DNA of 63,558 nucleotides, counting the filler, from Dicyema japonicum (lineage: Eukaryota > Animalia > Dicyemida), in NCBI GenBank assembly GCA_011109175.1. It is 7 parts of 7 records of this genome, joined end to end, with 100 filler letters (N's around TTAATTAATTAA, not from the genome) between each part and the next. Parts side by side here need not be neighbours in the genome. Positions count along the whole stretch, not along the records: positions 58,156 to 61,307 come from RDEW01000344.1; 6 more parts are not named here. One strand, written 5' to 3'. Made by a program: the position numbers and the translations under genes. Numbering within the stretch: the stretch's first letter is position 1; each line of letters starts with the position of its first letter. Below the pieces are notes generated by a model. It searched no databases. It saw only the letters and a list, made by a program, of their open reading frames with translations, and had not been told where the DNA came from. Shown one piece after another: positions 1,437 to 61,307 of this stretch.

Positions 1437-2141
1437 TTAAGTCCTAATATCATGTTGGAAAGGCATTATAGGTAATGCTATATTCCTCCAATGTTCGGGT
1501 GTTCTATACTTCATAGTAGCCTCCAATGCATTGATGATAGCCTTAGCAAAATTAGCCAAAGTTGCAGTAGCACCACGTGTACATGTATAACAATCATCAA
1601 GTCCACACATTCTTAATAACTTTTGAGGTACAATAGCAGCCACTAATCCAGTACCACGTGGAGCAGGTATTAGTCTAACAAGAACAGAACCACACTTTCC
1701 AGTAACCTTGTATGGTACAGTATGCATTGGTCCTATTTTATTACCCCAATATCCTTTACGAACTGGCACAATGTTTAGTTTGGCCAGAGAGACTGCCTCA
1801 CGCATTGAGTTTACTGCTTCCTTTGAACATTTTATACCCAATCCAACATGACCTTTACCATCACCAACTGCCACTATTGCCTTTTGTCTTGTTCTCTGTC
1901 CTGCTCTTGTCTGCTTCTGTACTGACTGCACTTTCAGTACTTCGTCAGTCAAATCTGGTAGTAAATGGTCTACTATTTCCACTTCCATTATTGGTAGAGA
2001 GGCTAAGAATATCTCCTCAATTGATGTTATTAGTCCTTCATTTACCATTCTACCCAGTCTTGTTATTGGTACCCATTCTTTCTTCGGTGGTGGAGCATTC
2101 TTCTGTCCTCTTCGTCCAAATCCACGAGGTCGTTGAGACAT
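1437..2141 (-). CDS. RPS2: 40S ribosomal protein S2 (uS5), intronless
   Basis: 234-aa ORF with [22 protein letters not shown] and [18 protein letters not shown] motifs. Confidence 0.97.
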
Positions 2142-15932: not shown

Positions 15933-16004
15933 GGCTCCATGGCTCAGTGGTAGAGCGTCTGTCTAGTAAACAGAAGGTCGCGAGTTCGATCCTCGCTGGA
16001 GCCT
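15933..16004 (+). tRNA. tRNA-Thr(AGT)
   Basis: Full cloverleaf: GGCTCCA/TGGAGCC acceptor stem, GCTC/GAGC D stem, TCTGT-CTAGTAA-ACAGA anticodon arm, GCGAG-TTCGATC-CTCGC T arm; followed by a T-run terminator. Confidence 0.95.
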
Positions 16005-47383: not shown

Positions 47384-47803
47384 TTAATTAACATAATTTC
47401 CAGGAAAAAACCCGTACATATGTAATGTATTTGAAAAACCAAAGCACCATCCATCATTATATACTCTATGTATTGAAATATTGTCTCCCAAAAATAAATA
47501 TAGTTCATCAGGATGTTGAGGAGTGTATTCCTGAATTACTGTGCGGTTTCCTGATTTATATATATAGTTATCCTTAATTTTGCTTTCAGTGATATTCCTG
47601 TCTTTCACCTCATCATTAGGGTCCCTCTTCACACGCCCGTTCATTTTACTCCAAAAGTATGAGTACCATTCATGATCTATCATTGGAGGTTGAGTTCTCT
47701 TCACATCAACTGTTTGATATAATAATTTACCATTTTTTATGCATCTCATTTGAGCATTAATATCCAATAAATATTTGGTATACCAATTCCTATCAACTGG
47801 CAT
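47384..47803 (-). CDS. Small SH3-domain protein
   Basis: C-terminal VIQEYTPQHPDELYLFLGDNISIHRVYNDGWCFG..GFFPGNYV is an SH3 consensus. Confidence 0.8.
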   Translation of the reverse strand: MPVDRNWYTKYLLDINAQMRCIKNGKLLYQTVDVKRTQPPMIDHEWYSYFWSKMNGRVKRDPNDEVKDRNITESKIKDNYIYKSGNRTVIQEYTPQHPDELYLFLGDNISIHRVYNDGWCFGFSNTLHMYGFFPGNYVN

Positions 47804-48105
47804 TATGGTAAATTATTGCGGTTATGACAAATTTATATTAAATTTTATTATTCGTTAAATAATACAAAAGTTTAGAGATAAATTTATCTTCCAGACAATT
47901 GAGAGTTCTCAAAAACCTCCAATTTATGTATTTTGATGATCTCAGTAAAGCTATAGTTTTCCCATAATGAATGGCATATTATGGGTAACATAAATGCCTA
48001 AAAGTCATGCCTAATTAAATTTAATTAATTATATTATAAATAAATATAGAAATTAAATTTATTGAATTTCCGAAATTCACTTAATAATATCAGAATGAAT
48101 GAAAA

Positions 48106-49240: not shown

Positions 49241-49439
49241 GTCTGTGTTCGATTATCACACTCTCAAAGGGATCCTTGGGGAACACCACTGGGAAGATAA
49301 ATAGATTTTGAGTGTCCGACGCCAACACGTTCCCTCCTAGCGCTATGAAGTTATATAACCAGAGTTTAAGCTTTCCATGGGTTCTAGTTTGGAAAAATTA
49401 CCAAGAATAATTTTTCTCATCATTAACTCGATTTTTTTT

Positions 49440-52400
49440 TTGGTTGAGGTGGTGACGTCCCTCTATGCACACATGTCTAATACGCATTTGAATAATCCTT
49501 GGTTTTCTACCCTTACCTTCAATGCCAGGGGCCTTAATGACTGGTCGAAGAGGCACCAACTGTGTCTGGACCTTGCAAAATATGGATGCTCTGTTTGCTG
49601 TCTCCAAGAGACGAAGCTCAGAAAAGGACTCGATGAAAACCTTGGAGACTACAGACTAATCCTCCTTCCATCGTACTGTAAACACTATGGACAGGGTTTC
49701 GCTGTTCACAAGAATTTGCTCCCCAGATTACATCGATATTGGAAAATTGATGACAGGATATGTGTTATTCAATTTCTTATTGGACCCAAAGGGAAGTCCA
49801 GGCAACTAATTTCCATTGTGAACGTGTACGCCCCACATAGTGGCCGTGTTTCCAAAAACCCAGAGGAATTGGACGTTTTCTACGAAGAACTTGTCGAGGT
49901 CGTATCTTCTCTGAAGTTTTCATCGTTCCTCTTTATCGCTGGTGATTGGAATGCTAAAGCTGGGGTACATCAAGGACACGAACGTTTTATTGGACCACAT
50001 GGAAGGGGGATCAGGAACTATTCTGGTACTGCTCTGGCATATTTCTGCGAATCCTTTGATTTATTCCTGTGCAATACTCAATTCCAACATTCCGCACGCC
50101 ACAAGACAACGTGGATGGGCACTAGACTATCGACCACCGGAAATCTGATAAGGATTTATAATCAGATCGATTATATTCTGTGTCGAGTAAAAGACAAATC
50201 TCTCTTACGGGACTCGAGATCTTATGGAGGACTAACTGTTAACAGTGATCACAAAATTGTGTCAGCAAGATTCAGCTTAAGACTTGGTCCAACTGCGGAG
50301 GAGTTCCTCTACGGGATAACTAATAGAAGATGCTTCTTCCAAACACATCGTGGTGGAGATTCCACGCGATCAAGAAGGTATATGACTGAACTCTTGGGCT
50401 CTTCACCAAAAGTACAAGCAGACTATAAAGAATGTGTATCGGATTCAATTAATAATACGGCATCGGATCTTTCACCAGGAAAGGCATGGCTCGAAACTAG
50501 AGGGATCATTTCCGCTGCTGACAAACATCTGGGGGAACTTAAACCCCATAGCAGTCAGCGTCACCCGGAAGTGTCAGCCCTATTGAATTTGCAGAAGAAC
50601 TTAAGGCTTAGATCCGAAAATACTGTCGATCCTCAGACTGTTTGCAAACTGAAACAAGAACGAAGGCAAATTGAGAGAAAAATCAAACTCCTAAACAGAC
50701 TACATCACACTAGTCAGTTGGAAAGCAAGATCAGAGAGGTAGAAAACCTTAAAGACAATGCTGCGACATTCATGGCTATACGACTAATACGGAGGAAGAG
50801 CCAATCAGTGAAACTTATTTTGCATGACAGAAATGGAAAAACAATAGGAAATGTTGCAGAACAGACAGAGTTCATAGCATCGCATATTGAACAACTGTTC
50901 TTTGTAAAAGGAGAAAAATCAGATTTCACGCCTAAGAACACAACACTTGAACGGATCATTTCACCGGAGGAGGTTTGCATGGCGATAAGGAAACTTAAAT
51001 CTGGGCGCTCTCCAGGACCAGATAATATACCATCTGAATTGCTAAAATTTGGCCCTCCAGAACTTGCAGATAAACTCTCAAAATTGCTGAATGACATGAT
51101 AGAAAACAAGGACTTTTCAGAAATTGGAAAGGGGATACTAGTACCAGTTCAAAAAGGTAATAAACCCCCTGGGCCAGTTGAAAACCTGCGCCCTGTCATC
51201 CTTCTAAACACCTTAAGGAAGATCCTTGCCCTAATTACTCTTAATCGGATCCAAGAGCCGGTGGACGGGTACTTGGCCCAGAGCCAGAGTGGTTTTAGGA
51301 CAGGGAGATCAACGGCTGATGTAGTATGGTGCCATAGATGGCAATGTGCTATTCAACAAAGATTCCGGAGCTCAAAGACTATCCTTGGAATTGATCTGAC
51401 CAGAGCTTTCGACACTGTCCGTCGGGGAAAACTCATTGAAGTGCTTGAAAGTTTCCTGGATAAGGACTCGGTTATTCTGATACGGATACTCTTATCAAAC
51501 ACGAGGTTACGAGTGCGTATTGGAAAATGTTTGTCACGGGAAATTATTTCAACAGTGGGCACACCCCAAGGAGATTCCCTTTCCCCAGTATTGTTTGCTA
51601 TATACCTTGAATCGGCTCTGCAAGACCTCCGGAAGTATTACAACAATGATATTATGGAGATCGTGTATGCCGATGATGTTGACTTTATCTCGACTGACAA
51701 AGAAGCACTCTTACGTCTCTTGGAGGTTGCATCAGGCTGTTTGGCCAAATGGTGTCTATCACTGAATGTTCAGAAAACGGATATTGTTGAAATTAAGCGG
51801 ATGGAACTACGCAATAGTGAATGTTGGAGGAAGACCGTAAAGCTTGGCTCTCTTCTCGGAGACTCCGAAGACATTGCAAGAAGAAAATTGTTATCTACGG
51901 TTACTATGCAAAAACTTATGAAATGTTGGATAAGAAAATGCTCGGTCGGGCCATCACTCCGACTCAGGTTGTATGAGGCGTTCGTGAGGCCCATACTAAC
52001 ATACAACTCTGGGACGTGGGGAATTTCGAAAACGGACGAACAAAACCTTGACTCCTTTCACAGAAGGCAACTTCGGTCTCTCTTGGGACTAAAGTGGCCA
52101 ATGCGTGTAGGGAGTGAAAATTTATATAGAAGATGCGGTTCCGGACCTCTGAGCACCATGATCATGAAGGCTCGCTGGAGATTGTTTGGCCATATTCTCA
52201 GATTGGAACAAGACACGCCAGCAAACGTCGTCATGGAAGAATACTTCGATACGTCAGGGGAGAAGTTCAGAGGTCGTCCAAGAATAACTCTCCCGGAAGT
52301 CCTTAATGGTGACCTGAGATCAGTAACCAGACACTAAAGGACGGTGAAGACCTTAGTAGTCTGCGTAACTTGGCATCGGACAGGAAGGGATGGGAAAGGC

Positions 52401-55108: not shown

Positions 55109-56849
55109 TTAAGAATCCAGATCGTCAGTAATTTCTCTTCTTCGCTTGGAAGAAGAGTTTGCCATAAACTTGCTATCATTTTCTTTTTCAGCGTCAAAAA
55201 TTTTATTCAACTGAGTGTCCTCGCGACATGCCAGCTCCGCAAGTTGATTGGCGGCAGAGGCGTACTCCTCATTGTCTACCTTCATTCCGTGTCTGTGTTC
55301 AATGAGCATACTCTCTAGCGTCCTCTTCAGCACAACTGACTGGATGTATGTCCTCGTTCCTTCTTCAACGGATAACTTGTCCATATGACTTTAAAGAACT
55401 TTGAGACAACTCCATCCCATGTCAAGACAATTGGAATAATCTTTACTTTGGCTTCATAGAGGACCGACAGTTCGTTTGCAAGCAAGTCGTATTTGTGAAA
55501 TTTCTCCACTTCAACTTGCTTTAAACGGTCTTGCGAGGTAATGCCCACTTCGATTAAAGTAATTTCTTTTTTCCTCTTGTCATAAACGAAAATGTCAGGT
55601 TTATTGAATTGGACTTTCGTTTCAGTCATAATTGACGTGTCAACTCTGATTTCGACATTTTGGGTCGACATTATTGACACAACCGAATGTCCTTTCAATT
55701 TCCTGCTTCTTTTGATTCCATACATTCGACACAAGTGAAGATGGATACACTTTACCACTTCATTATGTCTTCGGAGATAATCACTGTTTAGCATCCTACC
55801 ACACCGCGTGGCTAGATGGTCAACAGTCTGCCTGCTTTTTTTGCAATGGACGCATAGTGATCCCGTGTATGCAAAAAACAAATTCCTATCTTGCAAAAGA
55901 CAGTACAATGCTTTTCGCTCCGTGGACCATTGTTCCCTTTCGATAACCATTGCGAAGAAGTAGATATGTCGACATCTGATTCCTCCATACATTTAAACAT
56001 AACCGAGTGTAGTGATTTACAGTTGATTCGGTTAAGCAAGAGTTTCCTCTGAGTGTCCTTGAGTGACTTAATGTCCAGATTTTCTCCGCCAACAACTGCA
56101 TATTTGGAGGCAAGAAATCCTGCGATTGTGGCTAAGTGCCATTTTTTTGTTTTTATTATTCGCAGAATATCCGACCTTCGCAGACAGATAGTCGACTGGT
56201 TTTCCAAACTTTTAACAAACTGGAAGAGTATTAATTCGCTTTTGAACGAAATTGAGGCAAGTCTTCTTCCAAACGTCTTACGGTCCAAATACAACCTCTC
56301 CTTATTTGCAGGCTGGAGGTGTAACTTGAGAGTCGTAAGCAATCGGCGTATTTGTTGGTCAATTTCGTCAAATTCGAAAGGTTCGATATTGATTAGCCCG
56401 ATATAATAATTATATAGGGATAATGCATATTCATTGATGCCACGAAACAAATTCACAGCATTCAGCTTTGTTTTTGACAACATTGTTATCCTCTTTTTGA
56501 CATTCTCCAGTATGGAGTCCATAACTTTACTCTTGAGAACATTACTTCCGCCGTCTTCAAGTACACCCAAGTACCGATATCCGTTGATTCCATCCACAGT
56601 CTCACAGCATGATAAAGATTCCAAATTAGATGCTGATTTTTCAGAATTCATCTCTAAGCCAACACTTTCAAAGAATCTATTAACAGCCTCCATCATTTTG
56701 ACTAGCACATCTTCTTTGAGAGCAACTATTTTCAGGTCGTCAATAAAGAAGAAATGATTCGTGGAGTATGTCAACATATTGGGATCTTCCCGGCTAATTT
56801 GGAGTTTTGGAAACATGGAGTTAAGCATCCTGCTTAAGGGATCCATTGC
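55109..56849 (-). mobile_element. R4/Dong-like retrotransposon 3' half with few frameshifts
   Basis: HFFFIDDLK, YRYLG, CVHC..HLATRC..RHNEVV, KPDIF..IEVG..EKFHKYD. Confidence 0.9.
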
Positions 56850-58155: not shown

Positions 58156-61100
58156 GAACGACTACTCAGGGGTTCTGAAGGAGGATCTAATCCTAGACAG
58201 AGCTACGACTAGTAACAATTCCCTATAGAAAAGGAAACTGTACTATTTCTAATCTTAATGTTAAGTAGTATTGAGATTATTTCCTTTTCTTCTTATAAAG
58301 TATTTTAACTTTACCAGAGAGTGCACCTATCTTAGGAGGTGAGACTTATCTTAGTCTTTATCAAGATAGTTCTCATATAATTTATTAGTATCTATAAAGT
58401 TATTTAGAGTGGAACTATCTTGTGATATCATGCTCTATGATCACATCATGGTATAGTCTCTAGTGAGTATGGTCTAGGATTAGACTATTTAAGATAAGGC
58501 GACCACTCCACACGAGACTCTCTCCTGTAATGATTAGGCTGCGTCTAGTCGAAGTGGGATATAAAAGGGAGTGTGAGGTACACTCTTCCCTCCTGGCCCG
58601 AACACGATCTATAGAGGTCACATAGATTCTTTATACTACTTCAGATGTAACAATATTCTTATTGAAGAATCTATGACTAATAAAGAGTAAGTAACNATAG
58701 ACAAAGACGACCACCCCACACGAGACGTTCCTAGTGTGTAGGCTGCGTCAAGTCGAGTGTTGTGTATAAAGGGGAGTGTGAGGAACACTCTTCCCTCTCC
58801 TGGCCCGAACACGATAGGGAGAGAGCATAGATTCTTTATACTACTTTTAATGTAACAATATTCTTGTGGAAGAATCTATGGATATAAAGAGATAAGACCG
58901 CTCTCAATAGTTGATTCGTTCTCAAGATTTAAAAACCTAGACTCGGTCAAGGAATCAACTTATACTGTTAGTAAAGAGAAAGTAAAGCCAAAGAAACTTT
59001 CTAATCCACCATCAAACAAGTCCAGTTGACAATCGGCTACTCAGGGCTTCTAGGAGGTGGAGACTACTACGATAGAGTGACGACCAACTAAAGAAAAGTA
59101 ACAATCACAGCAATCTTTATCTGTAAGTGTCTATAAAAGGTGTTTCTTTTCTTCTTATGAAAGGTTTCTTCTACCTAAGGAGTATCTCAAAATTAAAGTT
59201 GAGGGTTTGTCTTGTTCTTAGTCAAGATAGTTCCTATATAAATTATTAACAACTATAAAGTTATTTAAGACCGAACTATCTTGTACACATCGTGTTCTAT
59301 ACACACATATACACGTCTATAGTGTGTATGATCTAGTGTAGGGATATATAGACAAAGACGATCAATCCCACACGAGACACTCTGCACGTGAGTAGGCTGC
59401 GTCAAGCGAGTGTGGTATATAGGGGGGAGTGTTCTTCACACTCTTCTCTCCTGGCCTTAGAACACGATCTATAGAGAGGGAAGCATAGATTCTTTATACT
59501 ACTTTAAGTATGACAAGATTCTTAAGGAAGAATCTATGTATATAAAGAAGAAGTTCTTTCTTATATAAGTTGATTCGTTCTCAAAACTTAAGAATGTTAG
59601 ATTAGATCTAGGAATCAACTACACACTCTTTTAGTAAAGAAAAGTAAAAATAAAAGATACTTTTCTGTTAATACAACAAACAACTCCCGACGACGATCGT
59701 CTACTCAGGAATAAGCTAAAGATTCCACAGAACCAACCATGTTGACCAAGTGTTCTACAATTTAGTCTAGATTCCTAGAGAAGTATGTCACTAGAAACTA
59801 AGGATCGTAAAGAATCTTCTCTAATCAGAATCAGAATGGTTGCTTTCTGCCAGTCCTATAGAGAGGTTTAAGGGGTCACTAGGAGTGAGGATAACTACGG
59901 CTAAGTTAAGTCTTATCTTGCTTAGTACAAGATAGTTCTAGTCTCTAATAATTTACTGACATATATAAAGTTATAATAAGCGAACTATCTTGACATAGTA
60001 TCGTGCTCTATACTCATGCGTACACATGTCTCTATGCTGAGTATGTATAATCTAGACAAGATAAGACGATCAATCCCACACGAGACACTCTGCACGTGAG
60101 TAGGCTGCGTCAAGCGAGTGTGGTATATAGGGGGGAGTGTTCTTCACACTCTTCTCTCCTGGCCTTAGAACACGATCTATAGAGAGGGAAGCATAGATTC
60201 TTTATACTACTTTAAGTATGACAAGATTCTTAAGGAAGAATCTATGTATATAAAGAAGAAGTTCTTTCTTATATAAGTTGATTCGTTCTCAAAACTTAAG
60301 AATGTTAGATTAGATCTAGGAATCAACTACACACTCTTTTAGTAAAGAAAAGTAAAAATAAAAGATACTTTTCTGTTAATACAACAAACAACTCCCGACG
60401 ACGATCGTCTACTCAGGAATAAGCTAAAGATTCCACAGAACCAACCATGTTGACCAAGTGTTCTACAATTTAGTCTAGATTCCTAGAGAAGTACGTCACT
60501 AGAAACTAAGGATCGTAAAGAATCTTCTCTAATCAGAATCAGAATGGTTGCTTTCTGCCAGTCCTATAGAGAGGTTTAAGGGGTCACTAGGAGTGAGGAT
60601 AACTACGGCTAAGTTAAGTCTTATCTTGCTTAGGACAAGATAGTTCTAGTCTCTAATAATTTATTGATATACATAAAGTTATAGTAAAGCGAACTATCTT
60701 GACATAGTATCGTGCTCTATACTCATGCGTACACATGTCTCTATGAGTATGATCTAACTTAAGATAATACGATCAGTCCACACGAGACTATCTGCACGTG
60801 AGTAGGCTGCGTCAAGTCGAGTGTGGTATATAGAGAGAGGAGTGTGAGGCACACTCTTCCTCTCCTGGCCCGAACACGATATAGGGTGAGAGGTAATCAT
60901 AGATTCTCTATATCATTTAGAATGTGACAATAATCTTAGGTGAGAATCTATGTGTATAAAGGAGATAGCCTTATAAGTTGATTCGTTCTCAAGGTGCAAG
61001 AATGCTAAATAAGATCTAGGAATCAACTACCCTCTTTTAATAAAGAAAAGTATAAGTAAAAGAATACTTTCCCCCCACCACATCAAACAATCATATCTTG

Positions 61101-61307
61101 ATGATCAGCTACTCAGGAACGAATGAGGAACTACACATAGGCTAACAGACTAGCTATATTCTATAATTTAGTCAAGATTCCTCAGAGAAGTGCGTCACTA
61201 AGAAACTGAGAAGTGTGTGAGACTTCTCTAATCAGAGTCAAGATGTCTGCCCTATAAAGGTTTAGAGGGGCTAGGGATAAGTATGACTACTACTAGGTTA
61301 GTATTAT
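58156..61307 (+). ncRNA. Tandem array of ~660-710 bp units encoding a putative large structured RNA of unknown family
   Basis: Anchor CTACTCAGG at 58162, 59037, 59701, 60409, 61109; anchor CCACACGAGAC at 58508, 58716, 59368, 60076, 60778. At least eight conserved stems with compensatory changes; no ORF of 60 aa or more. The repeat is certain; RNA function is inferred. Confidence 0.6.

Follow-up and report, generated by a model that had tools for sequence, protein, structure and literature searches.

The window, i.e., the whole stretch of 63,558 nucleotides from Dicyema japonicum analysed here, is composed of contigs with N-TTAATTAATTAA-N linkers between them. It is gene-poor and rich in pieces of non-LTR retroelements. 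An intact ORF of 986 aa, with endonuclease and reverse transcriptase (RT) domains, was found at 49377-52337 on the plus strand. This protein might serve non-autonomous elements as a helper, and the window has other RT pieces as well. On the minus strand, a non-LTR element ORF at 55327-56846 is split over two overlapping frames; its RT match is weak, and its C-terminus looks CCHC/PD-(D/E)xK-like by eye. Also present are an intronless RPS2/uS5 gene (1437-2141, minus strand; ~65% identity to its nearest listed relatives, of which animal proteins are closest), an SH3-domain exon (47384-47812, minus strand) and a tRNA-Thr(AGT) gene (15933-16004, plus strand).

One contig differs from these surroundings in its content.
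58156..61307, no strand assigned: repeat contig of 3,152 nt, between assembly linkers, consisting solely of repeat

No ORF above 90 codons, read from stop to stop with genetic code tables 1, 4, 5 and 9, was found in the repeat contig, and it has no significant match elsewhere within the window. Its GC content is 36-38%. It sits between linkers, and nothing ties it to the adjoining nuclear genome parts. Five cores and four 5' domains were recognized. Cores 2 and 3 are identical across 300 nt, which leaves only four independent cores in the window. Between core 1a and core 1b stands a single N (58696), the sign of an assembly join and not of a true duplication of 205 nt.

The sequence-only reading had taken the contig as a tandem array. 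Contigs of the sequencing run (run contigs) indicate separate self-joined monomers instead, stitched together by the assembler, so that the path of the 3.15-kb contig is probably chimeric. The monomers were delimited as follows.
58697..59347, no strand assigned: 651-nt monomer, i.e., core 1b, spacer and 5' domain of unit 2; a run contig ~96% alike returns from 59347 to 58697
59355..60062, no strand assigned: 708-nt monomer, i.e., core 2/3, spacer and 5' domain of unit 3; two occurrences in the assembly
60625..61307, no strand assigned: 683-nt monomer, i.e., unit 4; a 555-nt run contig leads from its core into 60625-60716
58171..58695, no strand assigned: fourth monomer type, i.e., spacer, 5' domain and core 1a; its 3' part is absent from the assembly

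The 555-nt run contig covers 60844-60900 and 60625-60716, with no differences in the latter part. If the core piece starts it, ~406 letters lie between the two pieces, and the distance from 60901 to the contig end is 407 bases. Unit 4 is thus followed by its own start, which gives 683 nt. The monomers are likely small circles or uniform arrays, and self-joined contigs are expected from either. A 59-nt piece common to units 3 and 4 has a depth of 389, close to 147 + 232, and could be a place where the assembler crossed over. Of the 91 run contigs aligned to 58157-59890, 65 are less than 95% alike, which makes the family a large one; the same holds for 15 of the 22 aligned to 60625-60900. Single-contig depths are ~115-330 on 58157-59890, and the per-contig range overall is ~115-390. 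Across members only 72-80% alike, conservation is concentrated in helices and motifs.

By RNAalifold on the plus strand, a nested frame was predicted, in which P1, P2 and P3 are followed by the irregular P5/P6 hairpin, then by P7, P9 and P11, and by a last hairpin.
59206..59356, plus strand: P1-closed 5' domain of unit 2 (P1 TTTGTCT/AGACAAA; P2 59223-59283; P3 59298-59330); P1 covaries across units
59368..59415, plus strand: irregular P5/P6 hairpin, which contains CCACACGAGAC and TAGGCTGCGTC; unpaired and conserved in it are CTGC and the AAG(T)CGA side
59425..59445, plus strand: P7 hairpin, GAGTGT/ACACTC with G.T flanks
59484..59664, no strand assigned: 3' hairpins, i.e., P9 (59484-59538), P11 (59568-59620) and AAAAGTA/TACTTTT

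In phased units, one position of P1 is found as C-G, T-A and A-T, and another as A-T or G-C. With three Watson-Crick pair types, the stem crossed by the pseudoknots is well supported. The folding of unit 4 was compared with 100 shuffles and gave z of -3.7 on the plus and -4.4 on the minus strand. Against 25 shuffles each, units 2-4 gave z of -3.2 to -7.8 and units 1a and 1b z of -1.4 to -1.8, and three of the four spacers folded no better than shuffled (z ~0).

Other pairings were seen around this frame. A purine/pyrimidine helix of 8-11 bp is carried by each of the four spacers (58227-58290, 59091-59153, 59776-59823 and 61184-61229), yet these fall into two sequence types. The helices are a lead only, because shuffled sequences fold as well as the spacers overall. 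In cores 1b and 4 (58716-58762 and 60778-60826), P5 extends via tandem G.A pairs into GAC/GTC, a possible third use of GAGAC. TATCTTG/CAAGATA is common to P1 and P2 strands (60620-60646 and 60691-60768), which allows two alternative pairings and is a potential switch.

Pairings that cross the nested frame involve the following strands.
59289..59297, no strand assigned: 5' strand of PK-A, ATCGTGYTC; also at 58427, 60000 and 60709
59460..59468, no strand assigned: 3' strand of PK-A, GAACACGAT; also at 58600, 58807, 60168 and 60872
59314..59319, no strand assigned: loop strand of PK-B, N-GTCT(C/A), in the P3 loop; also at 58455, 60027 and 60736
59449..59454, no strand assigned: strand of PK-C, TCCTGG; partner ambiguous, i.e., TCAGGR or AGGAG/TAGGR sites in the spacer
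59329-33 / 59360-64, no strand assigned: PK-D, TGRTC/GAYCA, an extra crossing helix

A pseudoknot had been proposed between ATCGTGYTC (59289, 60000 and 60709), inside the P1 domain, and its complement GAACACGAT, present in all five cores outside that domain. The positions and the crossing topology are right, and a further copy, ATCATGCTC, was found at 58427. The chance test used 163 ungapped columns outside the nested hairpins and 150 column permutations, with GTCTC/GAGAC (5-6 bp) left out. The score of PK-A was 8.0 of 9 Watson-Crick pairs. The null maximum was 5.7 +/- 0.5, and none of the 150 permutations came up to the PK-A score. When wobble was allowed, it was reached by 1/150 (minus-strand wobble) or 6/150 (plus-strand wobble). 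On the minus strand, PK-A ranks first among the partners of GAACACGAT in all four monomers; on the plus strand it ranks first in two, second in one and outside the top three in unit 1a. Both of its variable positions turn G.U on the minus strand and A.C on the plus strand. The proposal therefore stands as to a pairing beyond chance across a covarying stem, but gains no double-sided change among the aligned monomers. From sequence comparison, PK-A is predicted to be a crossing helix, well beyond chance, across P1.

The hairpin-loop sequence GTCT(C) had been matched to an invariant GAGAC outside local stems. AGTCTC/GAGACT was found at 58455/58514 and TGTCTC/GAGACA at 60027/60082, the supposed unit 4 being the fourth core. 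PK-B has four never-varying pairs, and one pair broken in one monomer. Its flanking pair is A-T, C-G and T-A across monomers, with one T.T, and three matches of four have a rough chance of 0.05 by hand estimate. RNAalifold prefers a local GAC/GTC pair over the loop pairing. The match thus gains one covarying flank pair and faces a local rival, and GAGAC does not lie outside local stems, since GTC can pair with its GAC. PK-D, which the sequence-only reading lacked, shows one double-sided change (unit 1a) and one A.C in two other monomers. Each with one covarying pair, PK-B and PK-D are plausible crossing helices.

The third pairing proposed, TCCTGG with TCAGGR about 250 nt downstream, fared worse. 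The sites are present, with 243-256 nt from TCCTGG to TCAGG. TCCTGG/TCAGGA was reached by 16/150 permutations with G.U and 104/150 without, and is outside the four best plus-strand partners in all four monomers, where spacer sites score better. As a unique pair it was rejected, i.e., within chance and with stronger rival partners. GACG/CGTC was also rejected as a helix, because GAC is the variable end of P1. Covariation over the whole structure was not significant in a 4-row minus-strand alignment (score reached by 125/500 shuffles), which contains register errors in P1, P6 and PK-B, the window alone being underpowered.

The pairings also respond to the order of the parts. With read-based phasing, P1 of unit 4 has 10/10 pairs (61301-61307 then 60625-60627, against 60761-60770), versus 9/10 in assembly order, and the PK-B flank of unit 2 turns from C.A to C-G. 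The cost is one A.C gained by PK-D in the monomer with the unit 2 5' domain. Run-contig phasing, which was not chosen for pairing, mends pairs that are broken in the assembly.

The strand that folds was approached by wobble pairs. Helix positions with G.T on the plus strand number 11, versus 5 with A.C, i.e., G.U on the minus strand (p=0.21). The count is 7 versus 5 when only positions that are Watson-Crick in another copy are taken. Local hairpins lean to the plus strand, the deviations in PK-A and PK-D are G.U on the minus strand only, and most helices are pure Watson-Crick. Wobbles on both strands would also fit folding of both strands, or of single-stranded DNA.

The motifs GAACACGAT, CCACACGAGAC, TAGGCTGCGTC and TCCTGG are present in all five cores, as had been noticed. 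CAAACAA has four occurrences and CTACTCAGG five.
59677..59709, no strand assigned: CAAACAA and CTACTCAGG, conserved; no consistent partner found

These motifs had been described as invariant and unexplained by local stems. However, TAGG of TAGGCTGCGTC pairs with YCTR in 5/5 cores, with changes that give G.U on the plus strand. Strict invariance is also lost in run contigs. Among the differences listed (for 58157-59890, 40 of 206 rows), changes fall in the CCA of CCACACGAGAC, CGCGAGAC stands in one contig, and the last A of CAAACAA is missing from one. Still unexplained by pairing are CTGC, the GA-rich internal loop of P5, CAAACA and CTAC. Conservation of GAACACGAT, CTGC and CTACTCAGG goes beyond the needs of pairing. 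A TATA-like run followed by purines was seen at 58560, 58765, 59416, 60124 and 60827, i.e., 31-36 nt before TCCTGG in 5/5 cores, and is missing from one run contig.

Known RNAs were searched by Rfam, and no family matched the element at or near the gathering score. On the window, the sole match at gathering score is a distant tRNA, and 8 and 4 weak matches are far below threshold. Core motifs of ribozymes, introns and CRESS-DNA satellites were scanned on both strands as consensus patterns. The hammerhead core CUGANGA with GAAA and NUH gave no match on the plus strand and one on the minus strand, in one spacer only and not conserved. For an HDV-like nested double pseudoknot (+1 G, P1.1 GG, J4/2 cytosine), no P3/P1.1/P4 fits on either strand by eye, and Rfam gave no match to E=10. 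Of the hairpin ribozyme, with loop A AGAA/NGUC and loop B AGAAACA/GUAYAUUAC, the loop B patterns are absent on both strands in unpermuted form. Hairpin ribozymes also occur in permuted forms, as stated in the available part of PMC8216279. Of the group I intron elements (P, Q, R, S and an invariant G-C pair in P7), the S pattern is absent and R-like matches are not at a conserved homologous place. The pattern for group II intron domain V with its AGC/CGC triad is absent, RNase P/MRP RNA (CR-I and CR-V forming P4) gave one unconserved CR-I-like match, and a CRESS-DNA satellite stem-loop with the NANTATTAC nonanucleotide is absent on both strands. By visual inspection, no sequence like the motif of the Varkud satellite (VS) ribozyme was found. 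Likenesses to Alu/7SL, SRP helix 8, group I Q and R, and telomerase RNA were dropped for misfits of order or conservation. ARAGORN in mitochondrial mode gave one match, in one core only, and the 55 overlapping matches of a relaxed mitochondrial tRNA search were treated as noise. Sigma-70-like sites are at chance level (12 versus 9.2 +/- 2.9 expected).

Relatives were searched in other sequence collections. Scanning viral contigs for the motifs yielded 0, 3, at least 120, at least 120, 0 and 3 loci. The two largest covered 46/64 and 37/64 parts, and flanks were examined for 80 loci in each. Metagenomes gave 14 loci and GTDB 6, and in these 20 the remaining motifs are not in register. Searched with a profile of the units, the 266 motif-match loci (viral, metagenome and GTDB) gave a best E of 0.11. 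No relative was found by blastn against phage and plasmid records, and no description of the element in open-licence PMC and bioRxiv texts (figures and bioRxiv supplements lie outside this scope). Within that literature, the repeat is a real, undescribed structured element.

Monomer sizes, self-joining, the many diverged members, the lack of an ORF and the compensatory changes in P1 are the basis of our interpretation. We tentatively favor, at just short of an even chance, that these gene-less monomers of 650-710 nt are a non-autonomous satellite that would spread via a single-stranded, probably RNA, pseudoknotted copy. By analogy, it would most likely be a non-autonomous replicon like the Varkud satellite or a retrozyme. 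A polymerase would run along the circle or the array and transcribe it. The pseudoknotted core, i.e., the P1 domain, PK-A and P5/P6 with its unpaired conserved bases, would mark or make a unit-length cut. The unit RNA would be closed and then copied to DNA by a borrowed RT, for which the many retroelements of the window are a possible source. If the satellite model holds, catalysis by the core itself, argued from analogy, is somewhat doubtful; a core that is not catalytic would be a protein-recognition scaffold. The earlier suggestion of a tertiary-folded, ribozyme-like core thus stands as to a conserved fold with crossing helices, and its term ribozyme-like is an analogy. It is quite unlikely that the core would represent a new, large, multiply pseudoknotted ribozyme class, which would process transcripts of free 650-710-nt DNA circles in a VS-like retro-replicon, with CGAGAC, CTGCGTC, CAAACA and CTACTCAGG as its putative active site. 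To our knowledge, large new structured RNAs are rare in eukaryotic data and the VS ribozyme is almost alone as a DNA-stage satellite ribozyme.

The depths of ~115-390 are a narrow range, which speaks against the satellite model and also fits an organellar chromosome set. The monomers might then be non-coding DNA minicircles, mitochondrial or extrachromosomal, with the fold acting as a replication origin or control region in single-stranded DNA and not in RNA. We regard this as unlikely, though a serious contender. The mostly pure Watson-Crick helices, the wobbles on both strands and the roughly 3-fold range of member depths agree with it, as do the dicyemid circles (PMC6543705) and myxozoan mitochondrial plasmids (PMC11034133), precedents in the available parts of both sources. 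The RPS2 of the window, closest to animals at only ~65%, was also counted in its favor. However, ~500 nt of helices with crossing pairs would exceed what an origin needs; no mitochondrial ORF was found in the repeat, and ARAGORN in mitochondrial mode matched a single core. The three sizes, 651, 683 and 708 nt, correspond to 62.4, 65.4 and 67.8 helical turns without clear periodicity, and the dicyemid circles, by the available part of their description, are mostly unlike each other (15% with a similar contig).

A multicopy family of host non-coding RNA genes in chromosomal arrays, whose fold would scaffold proteins and whose upstream motifs may be promoter elements, is clearly improbable. The TATA-like run before TCCTGG in every core, and conservation of GAACACGAT, CTGC and CTACTCAGG beyond pairing, would suit such genes, but one run contig is without that run and the covarying P1 domain would lie upstream of the would-be start. 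Arrays of functional RNA genes are usually homogeneous, whereas the members here differ by 5-30%, and Rfam gave no match. An ordinary satellite DNA rich in inverted repeats, with crossing pairs by chance, is very improbable. TCCTGG/TCAGGR is within chance, the independent monomers in the window are only four, and a self-joined contig is expected from any uniform array. Against this stand the three pair types of P1, a PK-A reached by 0/150 permutations, run-contig phasing that mends pairs without being selected for it, and conservation focused in helices and motifs among diverged members. For the satellite with a folded copy that we favor, as for any reading of the fold, the many natural variants in one sequencing run make the family ready for covariation analysis and a cleavage assay. 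If the element acts at the DNA level, it would give a handle on the upkeep of the gene-less 600-800-bp dicyemid circles, reported without a mechanism.

Among known systems, the VS plasmid of Neurospora is a non-coding circular DNA of 881 nt; according to the available part of PMC6765202, its own ribozyme cuts and closes the multimeric transcript, and a helper RT copies it. The element resembles it, as far as that part describes it, in being a non-coding DNA monomer below 1 kb (here 651-708 nt). It differs in that no helper retroplasmid is known here, its members are many and diverged, its host is apparently an animal-like eukaryote, and its cleavage is putative. Animal non-LTR retrozymes are tandem monomers of 150-450 bp with a type I hammerhead, by the available parts of PMC7229834 and bioRxiv 10.64898/2026.07.22.740005. 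On that account, non-coding monomers that may run head to tail, low GC and a folded transcript (predicted here) are shared, whereas the element has 651-708 nt, no conserved CUGANGA core and several crossing helices. The element is like both in its size class, its gene-less nature and its self-joined units, yet it shows neither of the ribozyme motifs that define them and is filed in neither family. Myxozoans, fast-evolving animal parasites, have non-coding mitochondrial plasmids as high-coverage minicircles in the available part of PMC11034133. The plasmid described there is a single 1.69-kb mitochondrial chromosome piece, not a family of diverged structured monomers. Dicyemids themselves have 3,220 long circular contigs with a median of 702 bp and shared motifs; the long circles are 600-800 bp, of high coverage and mostly gene-less, and only 15% have a similar contig (available part of PMC6543705). 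These circles are mostly dissimilar to each other, that part of the source reports no conserved fold for them, and none of six motifs taken from the element occurs in one supplement file of PMC6543705. The size of the element fits the long circles (500-800 bp), and its contigs are those expected from a circle or an array.
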